Notes: generated by a model from the sequence alone, not told the origin. 64,000 nucleotides of DNA from an uncultured delta proteobacterium (GCA_963843145.1 CAWJJC010000020.1:101398-165397), one strand, 5' to 3'. Positions 1,379 to 62,906 are shown, counted from the first letter of the stretch. Numbers and translations are program-made.

Positions 1379-1519
1379 AAATCCTCCTTCTGAGGCGCAG
1401 AGCGTTAAAATCAGAACGATACTTCAACCAGACGCCCATCCGGCATTTTATTATATCCCGGGCGTCGAAACCATCTTTTGCTTTTATTACGCTTTGCGCT
1501 CAGCGCTCTGCGCTCTGCG

Positions 1520-2659
1520 TCATATAATACCCATCCCCTTCAACACCGAAAGCATGACCGCCGCGGCCATGACCGAACCGACCTGGCCGCCGGCGTTGGC
1601 GCCCATGGCGTGCATCAGCAGGTAATTTCTCTTGTTGTATTTGAATCCTTCTTTTTGGACCACCCGGGCCGACATGGGGAAGGCGGAAATTCCGGCTGCC
1701 CCGATCAAGGGATTCACCTTGCCGCCGGTCAAAATCATCAAGGCCTTTCCAAAAAGGACCCCGCAGGCCGTGTCCAGGCAAATGGCCAACAGACCCAGGG
1801 CCAGGATAATTAAGGTTTGGGACTTGACGAATTCCGGCCCACTCATGGTGGCCCCGATGGAAATACCCAGGAGTAAAGTAACAATATTCGAGATTTCATT
1901 TTCCGAGGCCTTGGTCAACCGGCTGACCGCCCCGGATTCCTTCATCAGGTTCCCCAGCATGATGGTGGCCAAAAGGGGCAAGCCTTTGGGGGCAATAAAG
2001 CCCCCCACTATGGTAATGACGACTGGAAAGAGGATTCGGGTTGTTTTGGAAACGGTCTTTTTATGGGTTTTCATAACAATCTGCCGCTCTTTTTCGGTGG
2101 TCAGCATTCTCATAATCGGCGGCTGAAGCACAGGAACCAGGGACATATAAGAATAGGCCGCCACCGAAACCGCCCCCAGCAAATGAGGGGCATATTGGGA
2201 GGCGACATAAATAACCGTAGGCCCGTCACAGGCTCCGATGATCCCGATGGTCACCGCATCCAGCTTACTGAAACCCAGGGCCAAAGCCAGCAGCAGGGTC
2301 AAAAAAATCCCGCATTGACCGGCGGCCCCCAGGAGAAAAGTATAGGGATTCTCCAAAACGGGTCCGAAATCGGTCATGGCGCCAATACCCACGAAAATAA
2401 GCAAAGGAAATAATTCCGTGATAACGCCGGCATCATAAATAATCCGCAGGAATCCGTCCTTAGCCATCAGATCCGCCAGGGGAATGTTGACGATGATGGC
2501 CCCAAATCCGATGGGCAGCAAAAGTAAGGGTTCAAAATCCTTTTTTATTCCCAAATAAAGGAGAAGACAACCCACGGCGATCATGACCAGGTTAGACCAC
2601 TGGAGATGAACAAACCCGGCTATGAGCCCGGACAATCCACTCAAAATGGCTTCGAGCAT
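1520..2659 (-). CDS. Na+-translocating decarboxylase beta-subunit family membrane protein (OadB/GcdB/MmdB-like)
   Basis: 379-aa polytopic ORF. N-terminus and overall pattern (FEPLLLLPIGFG, GACDGPT, YSYMSLVPVLQPPIMRMLTTEKER) are typical of the OAD_beta family. Confidence 0.85.
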   Translation of the reverse strand: MLEAILSGLSGLIAGFVHLQWSNLVMIAVGCLLLYLGIKKDFEPLLLLPIGFGAIIVNIPLADLMAKDGFLRIIYDAGVITELFPLLIFVGIGAMTDFGPVLENPYTFLLGAAGQCGIFLTLLLALALGFSKLDAVTIGIIGACDGPTVIYVASQYAPHLLGAVSVAAYSYMSLVPVLQPPIMRMLTTEKERQIVMKTHKKTVSKTTRILFPVVITIVGGFIAPKGLPLLATIMLGNLMKESGAVSRLTKASENEISNIVTLLLGISIGATMSGPEFVKSQTLIILALGLLAICLDTACGVLFGKALMILTGGKVNPLIGAAGISAFPMSARVVQKEGFKYNKRNYLLMHAMGANAGGQVGSVMAAAVMLSVLKGMGII

Positions 2660-20388: not shown

Positions 20389-20442
20389 GGCCTGCTCCTA
20401 TAGTTCTCCATAGAATGCACGATGCGGCGTTTGGTGTCAGTG

Positions 20443-26100: not shown

Positions 26101-27525
26101 ACCGTGTGGATATTCTGACGAGCGCGCGCTCGCACTCCCGATACCTCTCCCCACTCAGGTTGTACTCGCCATTCGCTGCGATCTTCTCCTTCTCCACGAT
26201 GAGGCCCAGCGTGGGCTGGAAGTCGTCGACCGATTCCCCTGCCCGCAGGCGGTGCAGGTATTCGCTGATCTCGGCATGGGCCTGCGGTAGGTCGTTCTTC
26301 TCAATCTCGCGCCGCTGGGCGCCGAGGCCGAAGCCGTCGTTTTCGATCTTGAAGAAGGCGATGGTACTTGTCCTTCTTGGCCAGCGACTTGTCGAGGATC
26401 AGGATCGAGGTCTTGACGCCGGAATAGGGCTGGAACACGCCGGCAGGCAGCGAGACTACGGCGACGAGGTACTCCTCCACCAGCATCTTGCGTAGTTGTT
26501 TGTAGGCGGTCTGGCTCTGGAAGATGATCCCCTCAGGCACGATGATGCCGGCTCGGCCGGTAGGGGTGAGATGCTCGGCCATGTAGTCCACGAACAGCAC
26601 TTCGGAGCGCTTGGACTGCACCGAGAAGCGGTTGTGGGGCTTGATGCCGCCCTTCGGCGACATAAAAGGTGGATTGGCGAGGATCACGTCGGCGTATTCA
26701 TTCCACCGGTCCTGACTCGTGAGGGCGTCGTACTCGGCAATGTGTGGGTCGGCGAAACCGTGCAGGTACAGGTTCACCAGGGACAAACGCACCATATCAG
26801 GCGAAATGTCGTAGCCCTTGAAATTCTGCGCGAGGCGTCCCTTTTCGTCTGGCGTCAAATTGATTGCGGATTGAGGATTGCTGATTGTGGATTTGGCAGA
26901 AGTTCCGTGCATGATGATTGGCTCAGAATTGGCTTTCAGGATGTGTTTATACGCCGAGATCAGGAACCCGGCGGTGCCGCAGGCCGGGTCGAGCACGGTC
27001 TCGTTCTTCTTCGGGTCGATTACTTCAACGATGAAATCGATGATGTGGCGCGGGAGTGCGGAACTGCCCGGCGTCGCCCTGGGAGCCGAGCACGGAAAGC
27101 AGATACTCGAAGGCGTCGCCGAGGCGCTCGCTGTGGTCGTATTCGAACTCGTCGATGACCTTGAGGAACATCTTTAGCGTTTCAGGGTCGCGGTAGGGCA
27201 GATAGGCGTTCTTGAAGATGTCGCGGAAAAGGGGCGGTATGCCGGGGTTCTCCGGCATCTTGGCGATGGCCTCGGCGTAGAGATTCAGGGTTTCAAAGCC
27301 GCCCAAGCCGGAGCGCATGAGCTTGGCCCAGCCGTAGCGGGCGAACTTATTGGCGAAAAACTTGCGCTTCCCGCCGAACTCCTCGCTCTCGGCGTCCATG
27401 TCGTCCATGAACTTGTAGATCAGGGCGATGGTGATCTGCTCGACCTGGCTCTTGGGATCGGGCACCTTGCCGACGAGGATGTCGCGGGCGGTGTCGATGC
27501 GGCGTTTGGTGGCGGAGTCTAGCAT
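26100..27525 (-). pseudogene. hsdM: type I R-M methyltransferase subunit gene with at least two frameshifts (3' boundary approximate)
   Basis: The HsdM N-domain is in 27025..27525 and the catalytic part (DPACGTAGFL, NPPF) in 26301..26996. The C-terminal piece (..FFKIENDGFGLGAQRREIEKNDL..EKEKIAANGEYNLSGERY) is in a third frame. Shifts lie near 27045..27055 and 26365..26372. Confidence 0.8.
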
Positions 27526-27899
27526 TTTGGATTTCTGATTGTGGATTTTGGATTGTTTTCCTTCGCCGTCCGTCCGGAGGCGGTGAAAATGGCCGTCAGT
27601 TCTTCGGCTTCCTGATGAATTGGAGAAACGAGTTCGAGATTGAGAAGTCCCCCGTCCATGATCATTTCGAGCCAGAAAGCCGACTCATCAGCCTCTTCGG
27701 CGACAGTGCCGATCTTGGCGATGAATTCGGCTTTTGATCGGCTGCGGCAGGCGGCGCGGTAGTTGGCGCCTACGGATGTTCCGCTACGAATCAGTTGGCT
27801 GCCGATTGCCCGTCCCGTTGTTGTTTTCGGCAACGCATCGACGAGATTCATCACGCGCAACCCGAACTGTTTGGTTCTGGCCTTTAGTTCTTGACTCAT
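27519..27899 (-). CDS. four-helix-bundle protein (23S rRNA intervening-sequence protein family)
   Basis: 126-aa ORF with ..IGSQLIRSGTSVGANYRAACR.RSKAEFIAKIG...EEADES.FWLE.., classic for this family. The tail NNPKSTIRNPKC is encoded by a heptamer-periodic repeat. Confidence 0.85.
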   Translation of the reverse strand: MSQELKARTKQFGLRVMNLVDALPKTTTGRAIGSQLIRSGTSVGANYRAACRSRSKAEFIAKIGTVAEEADESAFWLEMIMDGGLLNLELVSPIHQEAEELTAIFTASGRTAKENNPKSTIRNPKC

Positions 27900-27952
27900 T
27901 CATAACAGTTTTTTAATCCACAATCAGCAATCCAAAATCCACAATTTACTTC

Positions 27953-28780
27953 CTATCCCTTGAGTTGTTTGACTGTCGGCGCAGCAGTAAGCACCTGCAT
28001 CTGGCGGATGGCGATCTCGTTCAGGCGTTTGAGCCGGTCCCCTTGCGGCAGACCCATATGAATGAGTTCGGCGTTCATGCCTTCGATGTTGGCCAGTACC
28101 AGTAACTGTTCCACCGTGGCATATTCTCTCATGTTGTCCTCAAGTTTTGGATTGGCGTCGCGCCACTCCTTCGCGGTCTGCCCGAAGAGAGCAATATTGA
28201 GTACATCCGCCTCAGTGGCGTAGGTGATGGCCGCCTGAGCCGGAGTAACGGCAGCAGGAATAAGATGGGCTTTCACGGCATCCGTGTGGATGCGGTAATT
28301 AAGCTTGGACAAAGTGCGGTTGAGGTTCCAGGATAAGGAGAGGCGACGATTTTCGTCGTCCTTGAGGCGCTGGAATTCCTTGATGAGGTAGAGCTTAAAC
28401 TCAGGACTGAGCCAGGAGCCGAACTCAAAGGCTATGTCCTTGTGGGCATAGGTGCCGCCGTAGCGCCCGGCACTGGCGACTATACCACGGGCGGCAGTGC
28501 GCTCAACCCACTTCTTGGCTGATAGAAAAAAACTATTCCTTCCTGCCTCGTTTTTAATTCCCTCGAATTCGAGGGAATTAAAAACGGGATTGTGGATTTG
28601 CTCCCACACACCAAGGAAAAGAACGGTGTCTTTGTTCTTAAGCCACTGTTCGATCAGGGCGTTACCCCCATCAAAATGCTTTACCATATCAGTGAGTGAG
28701 ATGAAATCGCCCTGGTCCTTGGAAAGAATGGTTATAGCCGTTCCCTGGACTTCTATGATTGCTTTTTTGCCCTTGCCCAT
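27953..28780 (-). CDS. KilA-N domain protein
   Basis: 275-aa ORF. The N-terminal region (..ISLTDM.K........I..WL.N..T..FLG.WE...NP.F) and ..YAHKDIAFEFGSWLSPEFKLYLIKEF.. match the KilA-N proteins commonly embedded in type I R-M loci. Confidence 0.75.
   Translation of the reverse strand: MGKGKKAIIEVQGTAITILSKDQGDFISLTDMVKHFDGGNALIEQWLKNKDTVLFLGVWEQIHNPVFNSLEFEGIKNEAGRNSFFLSAKKWVERTAARGIVASAGRYGGTYAHKDIAFEFGSWLSPEFKLYLIKEFQRLKDDENRRLSLSWNLNRTLSKLNYRIHTDAVKAHLIPAAVTPAQAAITYATEADVLNIALFGQTAKEWRDANPKLEDNMREYATVEQLLVLANIEGMNAELIHMGLPQGDRLKRLNEIAIRQMQVLTAAPTVKQLKG
28549..28586. repeat. perfect 38-bp palindrome centred on GAATTC, inside the KilA-N CDS
   Basis: CGTTTTTAATTCCCTCGAA|TTCGAGGGAATTAAAAACG, verified base by base. 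It encodes VFNSLEFEGIKN. Confidence 0.95.
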
Positions 28781-36869: not shown

Positions 36870-36901
36870 CCAAAAATAATTGATTGGCCAAGGGAAAGGT
36901 C

Positions 36902-37017
36902 GTAATTCCGGCGAAAGCCCTTCGGCTGGCTCAGGGCCATGAAGCTCTGTCGAATGGCCGGAATCCAGGACCGTTTATGCGGCCAATGCCCTGGATGCCG
37001 GATCGAGTCCGGCAAGA
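36902..37017. repeat. composite REP-like palindromic element
   Basis: AATTCCGGCGAAAGCC...GGCCGGAATCCAGG...CCTGGATGCCGGATCGAGTCCGGCAAGAC. Same building blocks as 40904..40932 and 63432..63565. Confidence 0.6.
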
Positions 37018-37054
37018 CAAATTAAATAAGGAAGGAAGGGTTGTCTAAGGTTTT

Positions 37055-40542: not shown

Positions 40543-40570
40543 TTGACATTTTTCTTCAGTCCGCTAACAT
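40543..40570 (+). promoter_or_regulatory. sigma70-like promoter candidate TTGACA-N16-TAACAT
   Basis: Read directly from the sequence, immediately upstream of the cobalamin riboswitch. Confidence 0.45.
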
Positions 40571-40574
40571 TATT

Positions 40575-40745
40575 ATCGGCAATCTGGGGTAGTTCGCTAG
40601 AACTTTAAAAGGGAAGATGGTGTAATTCCATCACGGACCCGCCGCTGTGACCGGGGACGAAAGCCGCAAGAGCCACTGTTCGTTACGGACGGGAAGGCGC
40701 GGCCGGTAGAGAGATCCGGAAGTCAGAAGACCTGCCCAGCAGAAT
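40575..40745 (+). ncRNA. cobalamin (B12) riboswitch
   Basis: Conserved core AAAAGGGAAGATGGTGTAATTCCATCACGGACCCGCCGCTGT, B12-box-like GAGCCACTG, then GGGAAGGCG. P1 candidates CTGGG (40583) and CCCAG (40735). It sits upstream of the cob operon. Confidence 0.85.
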
Positions 40746-40802
40746 CTGGAATTTTACCCTCGCGGATATAGGGTTGCCTTTTGGGAGGATAGAAAACGGT
40801 AT

Positions 40803-40836
40803 CCCCGAAACCATTGGATTGGTTTCGGGGTTTTTT
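40803..40836 (+). terminator. riboswitch expression-platform terminator
   Basis: CCCCGAAACC-ATTGGATT-GGTTTCGGGG followed by TTTTTTG. Confidence 0.8.
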
Positions 40837-40903
40837 GTTTTATTTTCTTCGAAAATAAAATCAAGTTTCGCTTCAAGGTTAGCCCGAGCATTTGCTCATT
40901 TTA

Positions 40904-40932
40904 GTCATGCCGGACTCGATCCGGCATCCAGG
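40904..40932. repeat. REP-like hairpin GTCATGCCGGA-CTCGA-TCCGGCATCCAGG
   Basis: 8-bp stem. It is the reverse complement of the 3' part of the 36902..37017 element. Confidence 0.6.
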
Positions 40933-40975
40933 AAACGGGGAAATCAGAACCCTAATAACAAGGAAGCCAGACAAA

Positions 40976-43584: not shown

Positions 43585-43723
43585 AAATTCGAAACTCGAA
43601 GCACGAAATTCGAAACAAGCACGAATGTCCAAAATACAAAGGTTCAAAACAGGACCGTTTTGGATTTTGATATTCGGTCATTTGAATTTGTTTCGGATTT
43701 CGGATTTCGGATTTCGGATTTTT
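43585..43723. repeat. cob-operon inverted-repeat element, copy 1
   Basis: The left arm starts AAATTCGAAACTCGAAGCACGAAATTCGAAACAAGCACGAA. The right arm ends in 4.5 tandem GGATTTC heptamers. It lies between cobQ and cobO. Confidence 0.85.
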
Positions 43724-43756
43724 ACCCTAAACGAATTTGGAACCGTTAATTCTGGC

Positions 43757-44287
43757 ATGAATAATATTCACGGACGTCTGCTCATTTTCACCGGGGACGG
43801 CAAGGGTAAGACTACCGCCGCCCTGGGGATGGCCTTGCGGGCCGTGGGCCACGGGCAGGGGGTTTTGATCCTGCAGTTTATCAAGGCCAATACTTATAGC
43901 GGCGAATTGACGGCCCTGAAAAATCTTCCCGGGATAGAACTCCTTCAAATGGGCCGGGGTTTCCTGGTCCCGCCGGAAGACCCCCGGTTTGACGAACACC
44001 GCCGGGCCGCGGAAGAGGCGCTGAAAAAAGCGGTGGAAATTTTGGAAGCCGGGAGGCATCGGTTGATCATTTTGGATGAGGTCTGCACGGCAGTTAAAAA
44101 AAACCTGCTGACAGAAGAAGAGGTGATGGCGGCGGTCTCCCGGAGAAAGGGAAACGCGGTTTTGGTTCTCACCGGGCGAGGGGCCGGTCCCGGCTTGACG
44201 GCCCTGGCCGACACCGTGACCGAAATGCGCAGTCTCAAGCATGGACTTACCGCCGGCTGGAAGGCCCAGGAAGGGGTTGAATTTTGA
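43757..44287 (+). CDS. cobO: cob(I)yrinic acid a,c-diamide adenosyltransferase
   Basis: Start set at ATG 43757 (MNNIHGRLLIFTGDGKGKTTAALG..). The longer listed ORF start lies inside the repeat element. Confidence 0.9.
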   Translation: MNNIHGRLLIFTGDGKGKTTAALGMALRAVGHGQGVLILQFIKANTYSGELTALKNLPGIELLQMGRGFLVPPEDPRFDEHRRAAEEALKKAVEILEAGRHRLIILDEVCTAVKKNLLTEEEVMAAVSRRKGNAVLVLTGRGAGPGLTALADTVTEMRSLKHGLTAGWKAQEGVEF

Positions 44288-45675
44288 CCTGTTCCATCCC
44301 CCGGATCGTTGTGGCCGGCACCCAGAGCGGGGTTGGAAAAACCTCCCTGACCCTGGCCCTGGTGGCGGCCCTCAGCCAGCGAGGGCTGCGGGTTCAGACC
44401 TTCAAAGTCGGTCCTGATTTTCTGGACCCCTCTTATCTGACCATCGCCTCGGGAAGACCCTGTTATAACCTGGACGGCTGGATGACCGATCAGGTCTATC
44501 TCCTCCGGCTTTTCGAGCGGACCACCCGGAACGCCGATCTGGCCGTGGTAGAAGGAGTCATGGGCCTCTTTGACGGAGCCGACCCGGCCACCTCGGAAGG
44601 GAGCACCGCCGAGATCGCCCGCTGGCTGCAAGCGCCGGTGCTGCTGGTGGTCAATGCCCACGGGATGGCCCGCAGCATCGCCGCTCTGGTCAAGGGGTAC
44701 GAAGAGTTCGATCCCGAACTCCGGATAGCCGGGGTGCTGGCCAATTATTCCGGCACCGACCGCCACCGGGAATGGATCAGCGCCTCCCTGGCCTCGGCCT
44801 CCCTGCCTCCTTTGCTGGGGGCCATTCCCCGGGGGGCCTTCCCCAATCTTCCCAGCCGTCACCTGGGTCTGGTGACCGCCGACCGGCACAACCTGTCCGC
44901 CACCATCCTGGATGAACTGGCGGCCGTCGTGGACCGGCAGACGCGCTTGGAGCAAATTCTGGACGCGGCCCGCCAGGCCCCGGCCCTGTCTTTCCCCGCA
45001 CCGCCGCCCGAAATCCCGCCTCCCTTCGAAGCGGTGCCCATCGGGATAGCCCGGGACCAGGCCTTTCACTTTTACTATCAGGATAATCTGGATGAATTGA
45101 CTCGGCAGGGAGCCGCCCTGATCCCCTGCTCTCCCCTGGCCGATGAACACTTGCCTTCCGGTTTAAAAGCCTTATACTTTGGAGGTGGCTATCCCGAAGA
45201 ATATGCCCAAGCCCTGTCCGCTAATCGGCCTTTTCTCGAGGATATCCGTCGGTGGGCTGAATCCGGCCGCCCCCTTTATGCCGAATGCGGCGGCTTGATG
45301 TATCTCACCCAGGGGATAGAGACCCGGGACGGGAAGAAATACCCCCTGGCCGGGCTTCTGCCGGCCTGGACCCGGATGTTGGAACGTTTAAAAACCTTGG
45401 GTTATGTGGAAGTCTCCCTGGCCCGGGACACCCTCTTGGGCGGGAAGGGGGCTATTCTCAGGGGTCACGAATTTCATTACTCGGAACTACTGGAAGACCC
45501 GACCCGTGACGGAGCATGGGCGGCGGCCTATCACCTGAAACGACGGCGTTCGATGGCCGGGGAACTGGAAGGCTTCCAGCACCGGCAAACGTTAGCCAGT
45601 TATGTCCACCTGCACTGGGCCTCCCGCCCGGAAGCCGTTACGACCTTTATCCACCATTGCGGAGTTGCTTTATGA
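44284..45675 (+). CDS. cbiA: cobyrinate a,c-diamide synthase
   Basis: 463-aa ORF with an N-terminal AGTQSGVGKTS P-loop and a C-terminal GATase (ECGGLMYL). The start overlaps the cobO stop. Confidence 0.9.
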   Translation: MTCSIPRIVVAGTQSGVGKTSLTLALVAALSQRGLRVQTFKVGPDFLDPSYLTIASGRPCYNLDGWMTDQVYLLRLFERTTRNADLAVVEGVMGLFDGADPATSEGSTAEIARWLQAPVLLVVNAHGMARSIAALVKGYEEFDPELRIAGVLANYSGTDRHREWISASLASASLPPLLGAIPRGAFPNLPSRHLGLVTADRHNLSATILDELAAVVDRQTRLEQILDAARQAPALSFPAPPPEIPPPFEAVPIGIARDQAFHFYYQDNLDELTRQGAALIPCSPLADEHLPSGLKALYFGGGYPEEYAQALSANRPFLEDIRRWAESGRPLYAECGGLMYLTQGIETRDGKKYPLAGLLPAWTRMLERLKTLGYVEVSLARDTLLGGKGAILRGHEFHYSELLEDPTRDGAWAAAYHLKRRRSMAGELEGFQHRQTLASYVHLHWASRPEAVTTFIHHCGVAL

Positions 45676-46394
45676 CTTTAATCCAACCCAGCGATAATTC
45701 AAAAGCCAAGGATCAACGCATCCCGGTGATCCGTGATTTTTTGGCCGCCCCCTTCAACGGGGAAGAAATCGAGGCTCGGTCTTTTGCCGTGATCGACCGG
45801 GAAGCCCCTGAACACCCCTTCAGCCCCGGCGAATGGGAAGTGGTCCGGCGCATGATCCACACCGTCGGCGATTTTTCCATTATTCCCGACATCCGCTTTT
45901 CTCCGGGAGCCCTGGAGGCGGCTGTTTCGGCCCTGCGGGAGGGTCGCCTGATTTACTGCGATTCCAATATGATCCGTTCCGGTCTGTCTCTGGCTCGGTT
46001 GCGCCGGGTCAATCCCGGCTATGGACCGGAAAAAATTGTCTGCTATGTGGCGGATGAAGCGGTGGCCCGCGATTCCAAAGAATTGGGATTGCCCCGTTCC
46101 CTGTTGGGCATTCGGAAAGCCCGGCCCCTGTTGGAAGGGGCCATTGCGGTATTCGGCAATGCCCCCATCGCTCTGCTGGAATTGAATCGGATGATGGTGG
46201 AGGAAGGCCTGAAACCGGCCCTGGTCATCGGAATGCCGGTGGGTTTTGTTCATGTGGAGGAGAGCAAGCAGGAACTGCTGACGCTTCCGGTACCCTTCAT
46301 TGCCCTGGTCGGGAGGCGCGGTGGAAGCCCGCTGGCGGTCAGCGTCGTGCATGCCCTCTGCACCCTGGCATTCAAGGAAGCCAAGGAGGGATAG
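45672..46394 (+). CDS. cbiC: precorrin-8X methylmutase
   Basis: Start set at ATG 45672 (ATGA overlap with cbiA). Contains ..VRRMIHTVGDFS.. and ..FGNAPIAL.., typical of CbiC/CobH. Confidence 0.9.
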   Translation: MTLIQPSDNSKAKDQRIPVIRDFLAAPFNGEEIEARSFAVIDREAPEHPFSPGEWEVVRRMIHTVGDFSIIPDIRFSPGALEAAVSALREGRLIYCDSNMIRSGLSLARLRRVNPGYGPEKIVCYVADEAVARDSKELGLPRSLLGIRKARPLLEGAIAVFGNAPIALLELNRMMVEEGLKPALVIGMPVGFVHVEESKQELLTLPVPFIALVGRRGGSPLAVSVVHALCTLAFKEAKEG

Positions 46395-46452
46395 ATTTCT
46401 CCTTTCGCAGGGCTTATGGTTTGTTTCAAATATTGGAACCGGCGGGATCTTT

Positions 46453-46589
46453 AAATTCGAAATCCGAATATCGAAATCCGAAACAAGCACGAAGGTCCAA
46501 AATTCAAATGATCAAAACAAAAATATTTCGGATTTTGAGATTTGATCATTTGAATTTGTTTCGGATTTCGTGCTTCGAATTTCGAATTT
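46453..46589. repeat. cob-operon inverted-repeat element, copy 2
   Basis: AAATTCGAAATCCGAATATCGAAATCCGAAACAAGCACGAAGGTCCAAAATTCAAATGATCAAA ... TTTGATCATTTGAATTTGTTTCGGATTTCGTGCTTCGAATTTCGAATTT. The termini are exact reverse complements (AAATTCGAAA / TTTCGAATTT). Confidence 0.9.
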
Positions 46590-46639
46590 GAACCAAAAAT
46601 GTTATTATTTATTGAACAAGAATCAGCAGGGGGAAGATT

Positions 46640-47131
46640 ATGGAGGCGATTATTTTGCTGGGTCACGGCAGCCGGGTCCCGGACGCCGGCCAGGCCATGA
46701 CCCGGGTGGCCAAACGTTTGAAAAAAAAATTCGGTTACCCGCAGGTGGAGGTTTGTTTTATGTCCCGCCTGGGGCCCCATTTCCCGGAAACTTTTGAGAA
46801 ATGCGTGCGCCAGGGGGCCTCGCGAGTGGTAGTGATCCCCTACTTTCTGCACACCGGCTTGCATATCCTCCTGGACATTCCGGAAATGATGCAGGAAGAG
46901 GCTAAAAAACACCCGCAGGTGCAATTGATCTTCGGCCGAAGTCTAGGGTTCGACGAATCCCTGGTGGATCTGGTCAACCATTGCATCCAGGCCTCCGCGG
47001 ATTGTACCGATGTGAGAGAGATCGTCCTCCCCCCCAAAGAGAAATTCCCCATCCCCCCGGGCCAGGCGGTATTCGTGCCCATGGATCCCGAGGAAGCGGC
47101 GGTTTATCGCAAAAACGGCAACGGCCTATGA
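46640..47131 (+). CDS. cbiX: sirohydrochlorin cobaltochelatase, small CbiX type
   Basis: 163-aa ORF with LLGHGSR...... and VVIPYFLHTG.H motifs. Confidence 0.85.
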   Translation: MEAIILLGHGSRVPDAGQAMTRVAKRLKKKFGYPQVEVCFMSRLGPHFPETFEKCVRQGASRVVVIPYFLHTGLHILLDIPEMMQEEAKKHPQVQLIFGRSLGFDESLVDLVNHCIQASADCTDVREIVLPPKEKFPIPPGQAVFVPMDPEEAAVYRKNGNGL

Positions 47132-47886
47132 AGAAACAAAAACTGTTCGGCGCCCTTTTGGGTGTGCTGCTCTTCGATTTAACGTTTCCTTTGGACAGCG
47201 CCCGGGCCATGCATATTTCCGAAGGAATTCTGCCCTTTTCCTGGGCCGTCTTCTGGTTTCTGGCCGCTATCCCCTTTGTCGGCTATGGCCTTTACCGACT
47301 GAAAAAAATTTCTCGGACAGACCTGTCTTTCAAACCCCTGGTAGGGCTTTTGGCCGCCTTTGTTTTTATCATTTCCTGTATGCCGGTGCCCGTACCCACG
47401 GCCGGAACCTGTTCCCATCCCTGTGGGACCGGGTTATCGGCGATTTTGGTGGGCCCCGGCATCAGTATCCTGATTGCCGCCGTGGCCCTCCTGATCCAGG
47501 CCCTGTTTTTGGCCCATGGCGGATTAAGCACGCTGGGAGCGAATATAATGGCGATGGGAGTGCTGGGGTCTCTGGTCGGCTTTTTTACTTTCCGCATCTT
47601 AAGAACGTTTAAGGCCAGCCTGGCGGTGGCCGGTTTCTTAGCCGGATTACTGGCCGATTGGGCCACCTACGCCACGACCTCTTTCATCCTGACCCTGGGG
47701 ATTCGAGGAGATGCTTCTTTCTCCTCCATTTTCACTAAAATCCTGATCGCCTTTATTCCCACCCAGTTGCCCCTCGGTCTCCTGGAAGGGGCGATGACGG
47801 CCGGCATGGTTATCCTACTCTCCAAAAAACGCCCCGACCTGTTAATCAAAATGAGGGTCTTGAAATCATCGGAGGCGCTGGTATGA
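47128..47886 (+). CDS. cbiM: cobalt ECF transporter substrate-capture component
   Basis: Start set at ATG 47128 (ATGA overlap with cbiX). A signal-like leader is followed by the conserved MHISEGILP mature N-terminus. Confidence 0.9.
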   Translation: MKKQKLFGALLGVLLFDLTFPLDSARAMHISEGILPFSWAVFWFLAAIPFVGYGLYRLKKISRTDLSFKPLVGLLAAFVFIISCMPVPVPTAGTCSHPCGTGLSAILVGPGISILIAAVALLIQALFLAHGGLSTLGANIMAMGVLGSLVGFFTFRILRTFKASLAVAGFLAGLLADWATYATTSFILTLGIRGDASFSSIFTKILIAFIPTQLPLGLLEGAMTAGMVILLSKKRPDLLIKMRVLKSSEALV

Positions 47887-48212
47887 AAACTTCCGCCCGG
47901 AGAACGATGGTCTGGCTGGTATTCTTTTTTCTTAGCCTCTACCCCTTCTATGCCTTGGCTGTGGAAAAAAACGGGAAATGGTCCGGCATCGATGAGTCGG
48001 TGGTTGAAAAAATTGCCAAGGAGCATGGGCGCGAGGCCCGGGAACCGATCATTAATACCGATCAAGGTGACCTGCTGCTGTTCGTCTTCCTTCTGGCCGG
48101 GGCCGTGGGCGGATTTGTGGCCGGCTATTACTGGAGAAGGCTGATCACTGAAAAAGCGCCTCTCACCAACCGGGCCGAGGGCCCTAAAGGATCCCGGGGG
48201 ACACTTCATTAA
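47883..48212 (+). CDS. cbiN: cobalt transport protein CbiN-like
   Basis: 109-aa two-TM ORF between cbiM and cbiQ with the C-terminal pattern ..GDLLLFVFLLAGAVGGFVAGYYW. Confidence 0.7.
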   Translation: MKTSARRTMVWLVFFFLSLYPFYALAVEKNGKWSGIDESVVEKIAKEHGREAREPIINTDQGDLLLFVFLLAGAVGGFVAGYYWRRLITEKAPLTNRAEGPKGSRGTLH

Positions 48213-48971
48213 ATGGAACTCTTCCCCGAATCCTTTCATCCGGATCACTGGCTTTCAAAAATCGACGCCCGGGTTAAACTTCCGGCCGCGGTCCTGGTTT
48301 TGATCATGATTTTGACCCAGCAGGGCTTTGCCTTCCCCTGGATAGTTACCGCCGCCGCCCTGCTCCTCCTGAACCGGATGAGGATACCCCTTAAGGTTTA
48401 CCTGCTGAGAATCGGCGAGCCGCTGCTCATTATTCTCATGTTGATTTTTTTAAAAACCTTCTTCACCGGTCGGGAAGTCTTTTATTCCCTGGACCTCTGG
48501 GGCTGGACCTTGACGGCCCATCAGGACGGCCTGTTGGAAGGACTTCGGATCGGCAGCCGGATCATCGGAGCCGTTTCCCTGGTGGTCCTGCTCAGTTTTT
48601 GCACTTCTTTCACCGATTTCATAGCCGGCCTCTCCTGGTTCAAGGTTCCCAAGGGCCTGATTGAGATTCTTCTCTTCGCCTACCGTTACATCTTCGTTCT
48701 TTTGGAAGAGGCCCAGGTGATCTACCTGGCCCAGAAAAACCGTTTCGGCTACTCCAGCCTGGCCCGGGGACTGAATTCTTTCGGGACCCTGACCGGCTCC
48801 CTGATCCTCCGGGTCTTTGAGCACAGCCAGAATGTCTCGGTTTCCATGATCCAACGGGGTTATGACGGGCACCTGCCCTCGATGAAACATAAATCCTTCA
48901 AAACGGCTGAAGTCCTTTGTTCCTGCCTGGTGCTGCTGGTCTTTGGAATCCTATGGCAGCTAACCCGATAA
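48213..48971 (+). CDS. cbiQ: ECF transporter transmembrane (T) component
   Basis: 252-aa polytopic ORF with the C-terminal ..A...RGY motif region. Its position and size fit CbiQ. Confidence 0.85.
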   Translation: MELFPESFHPDHWLSKIDARVKLPAAVLVLIMILTQQGFAFPWIVTAAALLLLNRMRIPLKVYLLRIGEPLLIILMLIFLKTFFTGREVFYSLDLWGWTLTAHQDGLLEGLRIGSRIIGAVSLVVLLSFCTSFTDFIAGLSWFKVPKGLIEILLFAYRYIFVLLEEAQVIYLAQKNRFGYSSLARGLNSFGTLTGSLILRVFEHSQNVSVSMIQRGYDGHLPSMKHKSFKTAEVLCSCLVLLVFGILWQLTR

Positions 48972-49837
48972 GGCTCCAGGCCCGGGAGGTATTCTACCAT
49001 TACCCGGACGGCACGGCGGCCCTGGGTCAGATCAACCTCTCTATCCACGATGGGGAGTTTATCGGCCTGTTGGGGGCCAATGGGTCCGGGAAAACCACGC
49101 TGCTTAAAGTTCTGGACGGCCTGATCCGGGATTTCAAGGGGACCGTCACCCTGGACGGGTCGAATATCAAAGCACTGACGGCCAAAGAAATCTACGGCCG
49201 GATGGGCATGGTCTTCCAAAACCCGGACGACCAGCTTTTCGCCTCCACGGTCTTTGAAGATGTGGCCTTCGGACCGATTAACATGGGCTTTCCGGAGCGG
49301 GAGGTGCGGACGCGGGTCGCCCGGGCCATGGCCGACGTGGAAATGGAAGGGTTCGCCAAAAAATCGATCCACCATCTCAGCTTTGGTCAAAAGAAAAGGA
49401 TCTGCATCGCCGGCCTGCTGGCCATGGGACATCAGATTCTGCTGCTAGATGAACCGACCGCCGGCCTGGACCCTATGGGCGAATATAAGATGATGAACCT
49501 GCTGACCAAGCTGAACCAGGAATCTCGGGTCACTATCGTCATGGCCACCCACAGCGTGGATCTGGTACCTATTTTCTTGGACCGGCTGTATATCCTGGTG
49601 CAGGGCCGGATTGTCCGTAGCGGTACTCCGGAAGAAGTCCTTACGGCGCCGGAAGAGATGACCCAGGTGAAACTCCGACTGCCTCAAATCGCGGAATTGA
49701 TTTATCGTCTGAAACACGAAGATCATCTGCCCTTTAAAAAAATCCCCTTGACCATCGGCGAGGCCCGCCGGGAGCTGCTGAGGCTGTTGGAAGACAAGGA
49801 GAAAGACCTAACCAAAAATTCAAATATTTTTGGTTAA
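48953..49837 (+). CDS. cbiO: ECF transporter ATPase component
   Basis: Start set at ATG 48953. Walker A GANGSGKTT, signature LSFGQKKR, Walker B LLLDEPT. Confidence 0.9.
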   Translation: MAANPIRLQAREVFYHYPDGTAALGQINLSIHDGEFIGLLGANGSGKTTLLKVLDGLIRDFKGTVTLDGSNIKALTAKEIYGRMGMVFQNPDDQLFASTVFEDVAFGPINMGFPEREVRTRVARAMADVEMEGFAKKSIHHLSFGQKKRICIAGLLAMGHQILLLDEPTAGLDPMGEYKMMNLLTKLNQESRVTIVMATHSVDLVPIFLDRLYILVQGRIVRSGTPEEVLTAPEEMTQVKLRLPQIAELIYRLKHEDHLPFKKIPLTIGEARRELLRLLEDKEKDLTKNSNIFG

Positions 49838-49996
49838 AATTCGAAACTCGAAATCCGAAATCCGAAACAAATTCAAATGATCAAATTTCAAAATCGAAAA
49901 GTTTTTGTTTTGAACATTTGAATTTTGGACCTTCGTGCTTGTTTCGGCCTGCGACGAGCTCAGCCGAGTCGATTTCGTGCTTCGGATTTCGAATTT
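49837..49996. repeat. cob-operon inverted-repeat element, copy 3
   Basis: It starts at the cbiO stop: AAATTCGAAACTCGAAATCCGAAATCCGAAACAAATTCAAATGATCAAA ... GATTTCGTGCTTCGGATTTCGAATTT. Confidence 0.9.
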
Positions 49997-50064
49997 ATAG
50001 GTCCTCTTGTTCAAATGTTGGTGATGAATTCTCAGATTGAAACCTAAACGGATCTAACCAAAGG

Positions 50065-51144
50065 ATGAGCACTCTTCGTTCAGGCTTTACCACCGGAACC
50101 TGCGCGGCCGCGGCCGCCAAGGCGGCGACGCTTCTTCTTCTGGGGGAAGTCTCGGTCACCAACGTAGAAATCGGTCTTCCCGACGGGGAACGGATTCGAT
50201 TCCCCGTGGTCTGGAGCCGGACGGATCAGGACTATGCCCAAGCCGCCGTGCGCAAAGACGCCGGAGACGACCCGGACATTACCCATCAGGCGGTGATCAA
50301 AGCCCGGGTGGATTGGAAGGAGGGAGCGGAAATTGAATTTCAGGCCGGGGAAGGGGTCGGGATTGTTACCAAGCCGGGATTAGCCATTCCCCCCGGGGAG
50401 GCGGCCATCAATCCGGTTCCCCGGCGGATGATCCGGGATGCGGTTCGCGAAGTCACCGACCGAGCCGTCCGCGTCACCGTATCCATCCCCGACGGGAAAG
50501 CCCTGGCCGCCAAAACCTTTAACCCCAAATTGGGGGTGCAGGGCGGTTTATCCATCCTGGGGACGACCGGGAGGGTCAGGCCGTTCAGTTGTCCGGCCCT
50601 GCAGGAATCGCTGCGCTGCGCCCTGCAGGTGGCCCTGGCCCTGGGCCTGAAAGACCTGGTCTTTGTGCCCGGCCATATCGGGGAAAAGGCGGCCCACAGG
50701 CATTTTGCCCTCCGCCCGGAGCAGGTCATCGAGGTTAGCAACGAGTGGGGCTACATGCTGGGGCAGGCCATTCGTGAAAAGGTCCCCCGGCTGCTGGTGC
50801 TGGGGCATCCCGGGAAACTGGTTAAGCTGGCCGAAGGGATGTGGGACACCCATTCGGGCCGATCCGGAAGCGCCCTGCCTCTGGTGGAAAAAATCGCCGC
50901 CGATCATTTTTCCAGACCCCTTCCGGAAGCCAACACAGTGGAGGGCTTTCTGGCCGCCTGGCCGGAGGGGACCCGAGGGGAACTGGCGGAAAGGTTGGCC
51001 CGGCGGGTGCATCGGGCGGTAGAAAAATTTACCGGGCAACAAATCCATGTCGCCGTGGTCCTAGTCAACCTCAAAGGAGACCGTCTGGGCAGCGCGGGAG
51101 ATTTAACCCCATGGGCCATGAACCTTACCCCATCGTCATCGTAG
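50065..51144 (+). CDS. cbiD: cobalt-precorrin-5B (C1)-methyltransferase
   Basis: 359-aa ORF starting ..LRSGFTTGTCAAAAAKAA, the CbiD hallmark. Confidence 0.9.
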   Translation: MSTLRSGFTTGTCAAAAAKAATLLLLGEVSVTNVEIGLPDGERIRFPVVWSRTDQDYAQAAVRKDAGDDPDITHQAVIKARVDWKEGAEIEFQAGEGVGIVTKPGLAIPPGEAAINPVPRRMIRDAVREVTDRAVRVTVSIPDGKALAAKTFNPKLGVQGGLSILGTTGRVRPFSCPALQESLRCALQVALALGLKDLVFVPGHIGEKAAHRHFALRPEQVIEVSNEWGYMLGQAIREKVPRLLVLGHPGKLVKLAEGMWDTHSGRSGSALPLVEKIAADHFSRPLPEANTVEGFLAAWPEGTRGELAERLARRVHRAVEKFTGQQIHVAVVLVNLKGDRLGSAGDLTPWAMNLTPSSS

Positions 51145-51740
51145 GCTGCGGCCCGGGTTCTCCGAAATACCTGACGGCGGCGGCCATCCGGGCCGTTCAG
51201 GAGGCGGAAGTGCTGGTGGGTGCCCGGCGATTGCTGGATCTTTTTCCCGAACACCCGGGTGAACGAATTCTGATGGAAGCTCACACCGAAAAAGTGTTGG
51301 TCGCCATCGGTCAGCAACCGGGGAAAAAAATCGCCGTGCTGGTTACCGGAGACCCCGGGTTGGCCAGCCTGGCCCAACCGATCCTGAAACGCTTCGGCCG
51401 GAGCCGTTGCCGGGTGATCCCCGGGGTCAGTTCCCTTCAGGCGGCCTTTGCTCGTTTGGGACTGGATTGGCTGGGGGTCCGGATCATTGATGCCCATGGG
51501 AAAGACCCTTCGGTTCACCTGAAAACGTTGGAGGGTATAAACAAAATCGCTGTTTTGGGAGGTCGACAGGACTCCCTCGCCTGGATTCTTCAGGAGATCT
51601 CGGCTCTGGGTGATGATTTTAGGCTCTGGGCCTGCGAGGACTTGACCCTCGAGACCGAACGGATCCGGGAACTGGACCCGCGGACCTCTGCCGGGTTGGC
51701 GTTATCCTCGCGAACGATTTTTATCTTGGTGCGGAAATAA
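51111..51740 (+). CDS. cbiE: cobalt-precorrin-7 (C5)-methyltransferase, stand-alone CbiE
   Basis: Start set at ATG 51111 (..IVIVGCGPGSPKYLT..). 209 aa, so a CbiE-only length with no CbiT domain. Confidence 0.8.
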   Translation: MGHEPYPIVIVGCGPGSPKYLTAAAIRAVQEAEVLVGARRLLDLFPEHPGERILMEAHTEKVLVAIGQQPGKKIAVLVTGDPGLASLAQPILKRFGRSRCRVIPGVSSLQAAFARLGLDWLGVRIIDAHGKDPSVHLKTLEGINKIAVLGGRQDSLAWILQEISALGDDFRLWACEDLTLETERIRELDPRTSAGLALSSRTIFILVRK

Positions 51741-51759
51741 AAAAACTAGGACCGGTACT

Positions 51760-52575
51760 ATGAAATTAGGAACCATTTACGGGATCGGTGTAGGACCCGG
51801 CGACCCCGAACTGATTACTTTGAAAGGGGCCAACGTACTGAAGAAGTGCCGACAGGTCTTTGTCCCCAAGGCCCGTGGGGAGGGGGACAGCGCGGCCCTG
51901 TCCATTGCCGGGGCCTATCTGCGGGACGACGCTGAAATCCATGAGCTGGTTTTTCCCATGATCACGGATCCGGTGGAGCTGGCCCGCCGCTGGGAAGAAT
52001 CAGCCGGGCAGGTGGCCGCCGCGCTTCAAGTCGGGGAAGACGCCTGCTTCCTAACCCTGGGGGACCCGCTGCTCTATTCCACGTATATTTATCTTCTCCG
52101 GGCCCTGCGGAAGCTCCTGCCCGAGACGCAGGCGGTGACTGTTCCGGGGATTACGGCCTTCAGCGCCGCCGCGGCCCTGACCGATTTTCCCATCGGCGAA
52201 GCCAAGGAACCGGTTACCATCGTCCCTACGGCGGACGACCTGCAGGCCCTGGAAGAAGCCCTGGACCGGGGCGGCACGGTGGTCTTGATGAAGATCGGCA
52301 AACGGCTGGTCAAGATCCTGGACCTGCTGGAGAATAAAAAGCTGCTGGGCCAAGCCGTATTTGTGTCCCGGGCCGGACAGCCCGACCAGCGCTTGGAAAC
52401 GGACCTGCGCAAACTGCGGGCCGAAGGACCGGAAGCCGGTTACCTGTCCATTATTTTGGTTCATGCCGGAAAAGGCAAATTCGAAACTCGAAATCGAAAT
52501 CCGAAACAAATTCAAATGACCAAAACTCGAAATTCAAAACCCTTGGTTCATAAACCTCAGCGACCCACCAGTTGA
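51760..52575 (+). CDS. cbiL: cobalt-factor II C20-methyltransferase, with a C-terminal tail read from a repeat element
   Basis: ..IYGIGVGPGDPELITLKG.. The last ~32 codons (..KFETRNRNPKQIQMTKTRNSKPLVHKPQRPTS*) lie inside repeat copy 4. Confidence 0.85.
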   Translation: MKLGTIYGIGVGPGDPELITLKGANVLKKCRQVFVPKARGEGDSAALSIAGAYLRDDAEIHELVFPMITDPVELARRWEESAGQVAAALQVGEDACFLTLGDPLLYSTYIYLLRALRKLLPETQAVTVPGITAFSAAAALTDFPIGEAKEPVTIVPTADDLQALEEALDRGGTVVLMKIGKRLVKILDLLENKKLLGQAVFVSRAGQPDQRLETDLRKLRAEGPEAGYLSIILVHAGKGKFETRNRNPKQIQMTKTRNSKPLVHKPQRPTS

Positions 52576-52682
52576 GGCATACCATTCTTTCTATTTCTGT
52601 TCCGGAAGGGGAAGTCGTTTCGGACATTTGAATTTTGAACATTGTTATTTGTTTCGGATTTCGTGCTTCGAATTTCGAATTT
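52477..52682. repeat. cob-operon inverted-repeat element, copy 4 (longest, with a unique central segment)
   Basis: AAATTCGAAACTCGAAATCGAAATCCGAAACAAATTCAAATGACCAAAACTCGAAATTCAAAAC ... GTTTCGGACATTTGAATTTTGAAC..TTTGTTTCGGATTTCGTGCTTCGAATTTCGAATTT. Confidence 0.9.
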
Positions 52683-52706
52683 AAACTCAACATAGGCTGT
52701 AAAATT

Positions 52707-53465
52707 ATGAAGGTTTACTTTGTCGGCGCCGGGCCCGGAGACCCGGAATTATTGACCCTCAAAGCGGACCGGATACTCCGGGGCTGCCGCTGTTGCATCT
52801 ATGCCGGTTCCCTCATCAACCCGGAGATACTGAAACGCTTGCCGGAAGAGGCCGAACGCTATGATTCAGCCAAAATGGACCTTCCGGAAATCATTAAAAT
52901 CATCGAACAGGCCCGGACCCGGGGAAACGATGTGGTCCGGCTTCATTCCGGCGATCCCTCGATCTATGGCGCCATCCGGGAGCAGATGAACGAACTGGAC
53001 TTTCGAGGTATTCCTTACGAAGTGGTCCCCGGGGTCAGCTCCTTTCAGGCGGCGGCCGCGGCCCTGCCCGCCGAACTGACTGCTCCGGAGGTCTCCCAGA
53101 CCATCATCCTGACCCGCACTTCCGGCCGCACCCCGGTTCCCGAAAAACAGCAACTCCAGGAATTGGCCCGTTCCCAGGCGACCCTCTGCATCTTTCTGTC
53201 GGTAGATCGTTTAGCCGAGATCACCGCCGAGCTGATCCCCCATTATGGCGCTGATGGCCCGGCGGCTGTGGTCTACCGGGCCTCCTGGCCGGACCAAAAA
53301 GTGATCCGGGGGACTTTGGCCGATATCGCCGGTCAGGTCGAAAAGGCCGGCATTAAAAAGACCGCCTTGATTATCGTGGGTCAAGCCCTTTCCCGCCGTA
53401 TCCCGGCCTCCAAGTTGTATGACCAGGCCTTTTCCCACGGCTATCGAAAGGCCCGGCCGGAATGA
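52707..53465 (+). CDS. cbiF: cobalt-precorrin-4 C11-methyltransferase
   Basis: Start set at ATG 52707 (MKVYFVGAGPGDPELLTLKA..). The longer listed ORF start lies in the repeat. Confidence 0.9.
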   Translation: MKVYFVGAGPGDPELLTLKADRILRGCRCCIYAGSLINPEILKRLPEEAERYDSAKMDLPEIIKIIEQARTRGNDVVRLHSGDPSIYGAIREQMNELDFRGIPYEVVPGVSSFQAAAAALPAELTAPEVSQTIILTRTSGRTPVPEKQQLQELARSQATLCIFLSVDRLAEITAELIPHYGADGPAAVVYRASWPDQKVIRGTLADIAGQVEKAGIKKTALIIVGQALSRRIPASKLYDQAFSHGYRKARPE

Positions 53466-54948: not shown

Positions 54949-54950
54949 AA

Positions 54951-55033
54951 CCGTTTATTTCGTTGATTTGGTTGATTTCGTTTCTTTCGTTTCAACCAGA
55001 CAACCCAATCAACCCAAAAAACCAAACCAACGG
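54951..55033. repeat. imperfect T-rich/A-C-rich inverted repeat at the cbiH-cbiJ junction
   Basis: CCGTTTATTTCGTTGATTTGGTTGATTTCGTTTC ... CAACCCAATCAACCCAAAAAACCAAACCAACGG. The arms are partly complementary (with G-U pairs) and roughly heptamer-periodic. Confidence 0.5.
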
Positions 55034-57451: not shown

Positions 57452-57800
57452 GTCCAAATTGGCAACGGATTATCTCGGAATCGCCAGGCGAACGAAAGTC
57501 GTTGTGTCCATCCCCTCCCCGAACCATTGCCCACCAAGGACCAAATTCACCCTATTTACTATTTCCAAAATGGTGTATAATTACCTTATATAATTATAAA
57601 CTCGGATCAATAAGTTAACCCATCTTCCCGTTTCGTCCTTATACCGAAAGGGAGCATCCTTATGGGAGATTTACGGAAACCCCAATTCTCGGAGGAGAAG
57701 CGGGGTTTTTTTATTGAGGTTTCAGCGAATGGCCAAAGCAACGAAGTGGTTTTTATTACAGCCAAAAATATTTCAAAACTTTTTGGCTAGGTTTTAAGAT

Positions 57801-62868: not shown

Positions 62869-62906
62869 GGGCTAATCTCTTCCGTAAATATTTCAAATAT
62901 TTTTGG

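Follow-up and report, generated by a model that had tools for sequence, protein, structure and literature searches.

The subject of this analysis is a palindromic repeat present in four copies in the cobalamin (cob) biosynthesis operon of an uncultured delta proteobacterium. The operon lies in a 64,000-nucleotide stretch of DNA (GCA_963843145.1 CAWJJC010000020.1:101398-165397), hereafter called the window, and positions are counted from its first letter. The four copies belong to a palindromic family that occurs in many bacterial phyla, and the long forms of this family carry an S23p gene. As the long forms have their arms in common with the cob copies, the latter can be described as miniatures of an S23p-associated palindromic element which lack an open reading frame (ORF). 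The explanation that we favour, and consider probable though well short of certain, is that the cob copies are non-autonomous, ORF-less members of this multi-phylum family, selfish and similar to the intervening sequences (IVSs) of rRNA, which form RNA hairpins in the operon mRNA. Membership of the family, association with S23p, the bias in position, polymorphism between relatives and foldability are each supported directly.

Four near-palindromic copies in the cob operon

The positions of the copies and of the other features are collected in Table 1. In each arm of a copy, about 4.5 heptamers (CGAANNN) precede a conserved core. When both strands of the four copies were aligned, the arm consensus was AAATTCGAAATTCGAAGCACGAAATCCGAAACAAATTCAAATGA(C/T)CAAAAT..., and each copy is near-palindromic. 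The motif CGAAATCCGAAACAA, with at most two mismatches, was matched eight times, once per arm, compared with 0.2 matches in shuffled sequence, and none of the 100 shuffles reached eight. A profile hidden Markov model (HMM) of the arm found exactly eight arms in the 64 kb, all of them within the four copies. The alignment, the motif count and the arm HMM together confirmed the four inverted-repeat copies that an earlier note on this DNA had described, with the end of copy 1 placed at 43722. The 7-nt periodicity reported there was recovered by Tandem Repeats Finder (TRF), which gave a period of 7 and 4.4–4.6 units at the outer ends of seven of the eight arms; copy 1 has a perfect TTTCGGA x4.4 array (100%) at the end of its right arm. 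Across the whole window, 11 lag-7 periodic segments were observed, as against 0–5 at other non-codon lags. The G+C content of the elements is 31–38%, compared with 55% for the window.

The long imperfect hairpins that had been predicted for the copies were borne out by the folding analysis. On the transcribed strand, copies 1–4 gave RNA folding energies of -58.3, -55.4, -59.1 and -71.4 kcal/mol, with z-scores of -7.4, -8.5, -6.0 and -6.4, respectively, and the longest uninterrupted helices measured 15–17 bp. The loops of the copies span 6–79 nt and have no similarity to S23p; the loop of copy 4 was considered as an S23p remnant and rejected as such, given that no similarity was detectable. The 10-nt flank of copy 2, AACCAAAAAT, recurs in inverted form at copy 3. 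Since these two copies have this flank in common, local copying may explain the clustering of all four CGAA copies within 15 of the 64 kb.

Pfam assignments gave the gene order CobD-CobQ fusion, CobO, CbiA, CbiC, CbiX, CbiM, CbiN, CbiQ, CbiO, CbiD, CbiE, CbiL, CbiF, CbiG, CbiH and CbiJ. A cobalamin riboswitch heads the operon, and all four copies are located within one transcription unit under its control. This riboswitch and one tRNA were the only Rfam matches in the window; at the gathering threshold, no Rfam family was assigned to the four elements. The operon reads as a series of blocks, namely the riboswitch with CobD-CobQ, then CobO-CbiA-CbiC, CbiX-M-N-Q-O, CbiD-E-L, CbiF-G-H and finally CbiJ. 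After correction of the start codons, the junctions inside the blocks measure -34 to +23 nt, and those bearing copies 1–4 measure 198, 245, 227 and 131 nt in that order. Every gap in the operon longer than 25 nt contains a palindromic repeat. The earlier claim that each larger gap holds the element stands for the four junctions, but the cbiH/cbiJ gap is filled by a different palindrome with a 9-nt period.

The description of the elements as intergenic needed a similar adjustment. It holds in that they occupy junctions of 131–245 nt, but copy 4 is partly genic, as 33 codons of the cbiL ORF lie within it, the stop codon being at 52573-52575. The TAA stop codon of cbiO (49835-49837) ends on the first base of copy 3. 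In the opposite direction, the cobO ORF (43625-44287, 220 aa) begins within copy 1 and the cbiF ORF (52635-53465, 276 aa) within copy 4. In these two ORFs the Pfam domains are first reached at residues 50 and 26, respectively; the in-frame ATGs at 43757 (cobO) and 52707 (cbiF) are therefore taken as the real starts, in agreement with the false N-terminal extensions suspected previously. Reading from the core ATG of copy 1 (43625) leads in frame into cobO without meeting a stop codon. An element-initiated N-terminal extension of CobO by 44 aa is thus formally possible, and is probably a chance effect.

A repeat family across phyla and its S23p genes

The 24-mer GAAATCCGAAACAAATTCAAATGA from the core was scanned against one genome per species. 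Exact matches were found at more than 108 loci in at least eight phyla, covering Aminicenantes, Desulfobacterota, Planctomycetota (including anammox bacteria), Patescibacteria, Nitrospirota, Verrucomicrobiota, Omnitrophota and Gammaproteobacteria. Every listed locus presented the same architecture of heptamers, core, variable loop, inverted core and heptamers. Many genomes contained 5–10 or more copies on separate contigs, and copies at different loci of one genome had lineage-specific loops in common (for example L034, L069 and L083). Closed genomes with family members include OY820905.2, CP070694.1 and OY970194.1. The idea of an element specific to this operon was therefore abandoned in favour of a high-copy family dispersed across phyla. 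A blastn search of copy 2 against plasmid and phage collections gave no match, and the 24-mer occurred in only one of 2.9 million viral contigs; on these grounds, a phage- or plasmid-borne element was rejected.

The loops of the family were mostly 0–130 nt long, and five measured 300–800 nt. Four of these five long-loop elements (at least 300 nt) encode an S23p protein of about 120 aa (PF05635, "23S rRNA-intervening sequence protein"; TIGR02436, "four helix bundle protein"), and one long form contains an additional ORF with a NOV_C domain. The closest solved structure to this S23p is 2RLD, an entry with five chains. The association was also examined in the converse direction, starting from S23p itself: its 80 closest homologues in the genome collection showed 53–73% identity and came from a dozen phyla. 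At 40 of these 80 loci, the ORF is directly flanked on either side by matches to the arm HMM that are oriented as expected, the plus-strand arm ending at the start of the ORF and the minus-strand arm starting at its stop. At most of the other loci, S23p was bordered by inverted arrays in different heptamer dialects (CTAAATC, CAAATAA and CCAAGAA, for example), which converge on a common ...AAACAAAT.CAAATGA... core. A 7-nt periodicity was detected in a flank of 68 of the 80 S23p loci, compared with 9 of 80 for the control lags. At 54 of 68 loci, S23p had the same orientation as the genes on either side of it. In most loci, no start of the S23p ORF lies further upstream than the in-frame core ATG; this ATG is the likely start codon, and the inner stem would therefore pair the leader and first codons with the 3' untranslated region.

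The genomic position of the ORF-less copies was assessed from crude ORF calls on the fetched loci. Among 55 classifiable copies, 32 were located between co-directional genes, 19 between convergent and 4 between divergent genes, and 51 of the 55 lay just 3' of a gene. Many were within 10 nt of a stop codon or overlapped one, and the element terminus, (T)TAAAT, is able to supply a TAA stop codon itself. Of 44 classifiable elements, 38 had both arms in one heptamer dialect. In addition, arm-to-arm alignments scored 40 within an element, 27 between elements and 23 for the direct-repeat control.

Three environmental metatranscriptomes provided a further view of the family, a search for a transcriptome of this organism itself having found none. 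Many contigs matched only the bins containing elements and not those containing genes; in the metatranscriptome X22, the summed depth reached 3495 over elements and 0–20 over genes. Family members of other organisms are therefore present in RNA-derived assemblies. These foreign contigs ceased to match at 43721/2, 46453, 46589 and 49837, which independently confirms the unit boundaries AAATTCG...CGAATTT. As the depth cannot be normalised, it is no evidence of processing in this operon. An intrinsic terminator has a GC-rich stem with a U-run directly behind it. Such a function was rejected for the elements, since the bases of their stems are AU-rich and the terminator scan gave no more sites than expected from shuffled sequence. 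No terminator-like site in the scan coincided with the element stems, and the sole site flagged inside any element was a small inner hairpin of copy 1 (43641-43656).

Orthologous operons and competing explanations

The comparison with related cob operons, which the earlier note had proposed, revealed that the insertion sites are polymorphic. The relative L110 is 93–99% identical to the window in cob coding DNA, a conspecific level, and has none of the four copies. It contains GCGC-type heptamer palindromes at cobQ/cobO and cbiH/cbiJ, an AT-rich AATTANN palindrome at cbiC/cbiX and, at cbiO/cbiD (L110 9830-9960) in place of copy 3, a palindrome GTCATGGCGAGCGGAGCGAAGCAATCCCC...GGGGATTGCTTCGCTCCGCTCGCCATGAC that looks like yet another widespread repeat family. 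Its cbiL and cbiF genes overlap, with no element between them. In L113, which is about 88–92% identical to the window in coding DNA, an orthologue of copy 3 lies between the same flanks (228/233 identical apart from a 24-nt insert, which it lacks), and the region 49713-50012 is identical at 270 of 276 positions. Of copy 2, this relative retains the left half alone; its cobQ/cobO junction contains a palindrome of the AGGAGTA type, and its cbiL/cbiF junction is empty. L109 has orthologues of copies 3 and 4, the former degenerate and the latter good (211/224 identical). In the more distant L111 (75% amino-acid identity), 26-nt mini-palindromes (AAATTCGAAACTCGGATTTCGGATTT) are present between flanks matching those of copies 1 and 4, and cbiO overlaps cbiD. 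The empty sites already have AAAT(T/C)CGAA as the last codons of cbiL.

Where an element is missing, the flanking genes overlap or abut; examples are cbiL/cbiF, in both L110 and L113, and cbiO/cbiD in L111. It is therefore the elements that produced the gaps by which the blocks are defined, and the earlier statement that the copies sit "exactly at module boundaries" is circular. As L110 lacks all four, the particular sequence of the copies is dispensable for the operon. From these alignments, the junction sites are old and their contents fluid. Either junction-cassette recombination between lineages or some constraint is suggested by the mosaic pattern, together with the higher conservation of copy 3.

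In the favoured explanation, each arm of the family begins as an array of a few 7-nt units (here CGAANNN) and continues into the conserved core ...CGAAATCCGAAACAAATTCAAATGACC..., and the full-length form is about 480–520 bp long, enclosing the gene for S23p. This protein is the four-helix-bundle protein of 23S rRNA intervening sequences, related to Avd, the accessory protein of diversity-generating retroelements (DGRs). The elements behave as selfish DNA that settles immediately downstream of genes, mostly in co-directional gene strings; they would be mobilised in trans and transcribed by read-through. They are gained, lost, internally deleted and replaced over short evolutionary times. In the polycistronic mRNA, each cob copy would form an imperfect hairpin, long and AU-rich, and uncouple the flanking cistrons. 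By analogy with the stems of rRNA IVSs, these hairpins are probably substrates of RNase III, stabilisers of 3' ends, or both.

Several observations weigh against this explanation. None of the 40 S23p-bearing relatives was located in an rRNA gene, as judged by rRNA matching, and the analogy to IVSs therefore rests on architecture and not on location. No target-site duplication of 2–8 nt was found in 66 elements, where direct repeats of at least 4 nt occurred in at most three at any offset, and the long forms contained no transposase or other known mobility gene. The variable heptamer triplets did not covary between the arms in the CGAA dialect (identity 0.385 within elements versus 0.42 between elements); the stem is for this reason better described as a chain of conserved 4–5-bp helices with free internal loops and a perfectly paired inner core. 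Other palindromes occupy three of the four copy-equivalent junctions in L110, which is compatible with selection for some hairpin. Furthermore, copy 3 with its flanks is 98% identical between the window and L113, against 88–92% for the neighbouring coding DNA, and this may reflect a functional constraint. Transcription through the copies and their cleavage by RNase III are steps that we infer, and an action of S23p on these repeats is putative.

The absence of target-site duplications bears on two further accounts of origin. A classical miniature inverted-repeat transposable element (MITE) would be the deletion derivative of an insertion sequence with a DDE transposase, mobilised in trans by that enzyme. 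The small size, terminal inverted repeats, many dispersed copies and presence/absence polymorphism are all features expected of a MITE, yet none of the 66 elements is flanked by a duplication, the long form encodes S23p in place of a transposase, and none of the long forms is a cognate insertion sequence that encodes a transposase. The arms are also 7-nt arrays of variable copy number and not fixed terminal repeats, and plasmid and phage collections contained no element. A classical MITE is thus highly improbable, and the label "MITE/REP-like" given earlier holds as a resemblance but not in its defining features, which include a target-site duplication, a transposase or the head of a repetitive extragenic palindrome (REP). 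The missing duplications would be expected if the palindromes had grown in situ, by slippage and hairpin-templated repair at AT-rich gene ends, with convergence and gene conversion accounting for their similarity. The freely differing heptamer numbers and triplets between arms and copies, the AAAT(T/C)CGAA present at empty sites, the mini-palindromes of L111 and the change of dialect at a fixed site fit such growth as well. Slippage, however, is unable to produce independently what is found across phyla, namely an exact 24-mer and an ordered core of about 60 nt without periodicity, and neither the lineage-specific loops common to copies at different loci of one genome nor the foreign contigs that match the unit up to sharp boundaries agree with it. 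We therefore regard in-situ growth as improbable. Insertion into pre-existing palindromes was rejected, with a flank complementarity of 5.39 compared with 5.17 +/- 0.14.

The remaining alternatives concern what the repeats may do. The earlier note had offered two readings, tolerated insertions and an adaptive punctuation of the operon, in which hairpins would be selected as processing or stability determinants or as attenuators and set differential expression of the six blocks. Punctuation agrees with the stability of the hairpins, with the palindrome in each operon gap of more than 25 nt, with the high identity of copy 3, and with the finding that relatives nearly always have some palindrome, of differing families, at cobQ/cobO, cbiC/cbiX, cbiO/cbiD and cbiH/cbiJ. 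It is contradicted by the conspecific-level relative without any copy, by a block structure that is not conserved, and by the occurrence of the element beside unrelated genes in many phyla. Tolerated insertions fit these results better, and punctuation is unlikely; a tuning of B12-gene stoichiometry by the copies is possible but unsupported. Alternatively, the 7-nt units could be iterated DNA or RNA sites for a multimeric protein, for which a pentameric S23p ring is a candidate, and the hairpin would then not be the functional core. The 4–5 units per arm would suit the five chains of 2RLD, a conserved unit core with free triplets is as expected of a contact motif, S23p genes are embedded in such arrays, and the related Avd binds nucleic acid and reverse transcriptase in DGRs (PMC10053308). 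Against this, the S23p gene of the window is flanked by a dialect other than that of the cob copies, and the many dialects of a single genome would demand many specificities, which makes a binding array decidedly improbable. A wider proposal joins S23p genes and inverted heptamer arrays into a single unrecognised class of mobile "operon IVS" that would spread horizontally across bacterial phyla, spawn gene-less miniatures and host nested micro-repeats. An Avd-like S23p pentamer would bind the arrays and aid their copying or movement, and the rRNA IVSs would be members that landed in rRNA. As neither target duplications nor a transposase were found, an RNA intermediate with a reverse transcriptase acting in trans is conceivable for such a class, which in its entirety we consider quite unlikely.

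Related systems, other repeats of the window and significance

The closest described entity to the cob copies is the 23S rRNA IVS with an S23p ORF, known from Leptospira, Coxiella, Xanthomonas and Brucella. In the Coxiella IVS, terminal inverted repeats form a stem that is cut by RNase III, the S23p ORF lies in the loop, and tandem heptamers (GACAGAT x3-4) precede the ORF (PMC4990558). IVSs of this type are viewed as selfish with no transposase known, and the origin of rRNA IVSs and the role of S23p have been open questions since the 1990s (reviewed in PMC4990558). Terminal inverted repeats, a long enclosing stem and tandem heptamers are common to the IVS and the cob copies, while the PF05635 ORF in the loop, in sense, is a likeness of the long-form members only. 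The cob copies differ in being located in an mRNA operon and not in 23S rRNA (helix 9, 25 or 45), in having no ORF, and in belonging to a family that is multicopy per genome, with miniatures. Without an ORF and an rRNA location, they are therefore not IVSs in the strict sense.

A second group of comparable elements comprises REPs with their BIME and REPIN arrangements, which are likewise short, extragenic, multicopy palindromes, mostly 3' of genes, non-autonomous, and able to form hairpins in mRNA or single-stranded DNA. They are also co-transcribed, insert into or next to one another, and produce no target duplication (PMC3116915). REPs measure 20–40 nt and have a GTAG or CGTC head (PMC3733652). 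In contrast, the cob arms are about 65 nt long, built of heptamers, begin with AAAT(T/C)CGAAA and have neither head. REPs are species-specific and tied to RAYT tyrosine transposases, whereas the cob family crosses phyla and its gene is S23p; no RAYT (Y1 transposase) gene was noticed beside any element, the genomes themselves not having been searched for RAYT. The Correia/NEMIS elements of Neisseria and the ERIC/IRU elements of enterobacteria are palindromic units of 100–160 bp in transcribed intergenic regions, which alter mRNA processing and stability, and Correia elements are cleaved by RNase III. These families are genus-restricted, with no heptamer arrays and no cargo-bearing long form, and Correia elements, unlike the cob family, duplicate a TA target. 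The cob copies thus behave like REP/REPIN, ERIC and Correia elements, yet miss the defining features of each.

Intergenic tandem arrays of 7 nt, often abutting ORFs, are also known as the cyanobacterial STRR and TAACTGA repeats (PMC4679880). The TAACTGA repeats of Beggiatoaceae, Cyanobacteria and Bacteroidetes have a patchy cross-phylum distribution, which suggests horizontal transfer with no known mechanism, and no link to S23p was reported in that study (PMC4679880). They are direct arrays, with one inverted case in 170 (PMC4679880), whereas the cob arrays are degenerate (CGAANNN), occur as inverted pairs and are joined to a non-periodic core. In the openly searchable literature, we found no description of the repeat or of a general association between S23p and heptamers; subscription literature lay outside this search, and a prior description is possible. 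Searching the literature with sequence strings returned chance primer matches only.

Table 1. Repeats, regulatory sites and the S23p relative in the window.
Feature	Position	Length	Strand	Details
Copy 1	43585..43722	138 bp		arms ~43585-43650 (left) and ~43657-43722 (right)
Copy 2	46453..46589	137 bp		left arm with additional GCACGAAGGTCCAAAAT module
Copy 3	49837..49996	160 bp		orientation opposite to copy 2
Copy 4	52477..52682	206 bp		79-nt non-repeat loop at 52541-52619
Nested GC-rich micro-repeat (GCCTGCGACGAGCTCAGCCGAGTCG)	~49947..49971	24 nt		interrupts right arm of copy 3; 72% GC over 49947-49971
Fifth, different palindrome	54950..55030			fills cbiH/cbiJ gap (87 nt); 9-nt period, CGTTTATTT x4.6 facing AACCCAAAA x2.4
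Full-length relative (S23p gene with arms)	27517..27955		-	inside type I restriction-modification locus
GCGC-dialect heptamer palindrome (GAGGCGCAGAGCG ... CGCTTTGCGCTCAGCGCTCTGCGCTCTGCGTC)	1393..1520			between two minus-strand genes
Cobalamin riboswitch	40570..40753		+	heads cob operon; Rfam RF00174, 118 bits, E 5e-29
Promoter-like site	40543-40570			upstream of riboswitch; promoter scan
Strong terminator hairpin	40803-40830			after riboswitch; terminator scan

The right arm of copy 3 is interrupted by a GC-rich micro-repeat, the placement of which may shift by 1 nt in the alignment. It appears as a clean 24-nt gap against L113 and is therefore polymorphic between the window and this relative, where it occurs in the cbiC/cbiX half-element (L113 4671-4695) at the identical arm position. 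An exact 23-mer of the micro-repeat was found at more than 116 loci in other genomes (L256-L371). Among the matches listed, the hosts were Desulfobacterales, Nitrospirota, Opitutia and Gammaproteobacteria, and the 23-mer (x) always lay within other short-period repeats, such as CGAAATC/x/CCGAAACA, GAACCC/x/CTGAACC, CTGTCTTC/x/CTGTCCTC and GGCTTC/x/CCAGCCGC. The small dispersed repeats of Nostoc (21–27 nt; cited in PMC3116915), reportedly described by Elhai et al. 2008, are an analogue of the nested insert, being tiny repeats inside short-period repeats; they differ from it in sequence and phyla.

The window itself contains a full-length relative of the family. Its S23p gene (27519-27899, minus strand) matches PF05635/TIGR02436, and its arms are inverted AATCCAC/AATCAGC heptamer arrays. 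The gene sits between the KilA-N/HsdR and HsdM genes, and its last 14 codons are read from the heptamer array. A further heptamer stretch (26857-26902) is contained in the hsdM coding sequence, and the hsdM-like gene (26301-27525, minus strand) is divided into two ORFs, HsdM_N at 27025-27525 and N6_Mtase at 26301-26996, a split due either to a frameshift (or pseudogene) or to an error in sequencing. At 20445-20640, upstream of a second hsdM-like N-terminus near 20420, lies a truncated S23p-like remnant accompanied by heptamers.

Other repeat types were also observed. The palindrome with the 9-nt period at cbiH/cbiJ is common to the window and L113, and a GCGC-type heptamer palindrome takes its place in L110 and L109. 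The GCGC dialect at the beginning of the window recurs in L110 at the cobQ/cobO and cbiH/cbiJ junctions. A small hairpin, (A/G)CCAAAAAT-N6-8-ATTTTTGG(C/T)T, recurs at 49810-49835, where it forms the last codons of cbiO immediately before copy 3, and in other intergenic regions at 57761-57790 and 62886-62910. A half-site (36868-36880) comes after ...CGAATTTTAACCAAAAAT at the end of the gene at 35265-36869, and the same motif precedes an element in L056. CobD and CobQ are fused in a single ORF of 880 aa (40907-43558), the CobD part being an aminotransferase class I/II domain, presumably threonine-phosphate decarboxylase; the fusion is kept in L109-L111, L114 and L115. One arm of a 32-nt inverted repeat pair (36990-37021 and 40901-40932, 94% complementary, CCTGGATGCCGGATCGAGTCCGGCAAGACAAA), another dispersed repeat type, is found right where the cobD-cobQ ORF region begins.

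Beyond the earlier note, the analysis contributes the link to S23p and IVSs, the nested micro-repeat and the finding that the elements lack target-site duplications. Outside rRNA, inverted heptamer arrays routinely enclose S23p genes, which lie in sense inside operons in many phyla. The turnover of the miniatures from strain to strain provides natural filled and empty sites, which makes the proposition that the IVS is a mobile element testable. The elements are, in addition, a hazard for annotation, through false N-termini (cobO, cbiF), C-terminal read-through tails (33 additional aa in CbiL, and the tail of S23p) and breaks in metagenome-assembled genomes. What looks like modular punctuation of the cob operon results mostly from the places at which selfish palindromes are tolerated.

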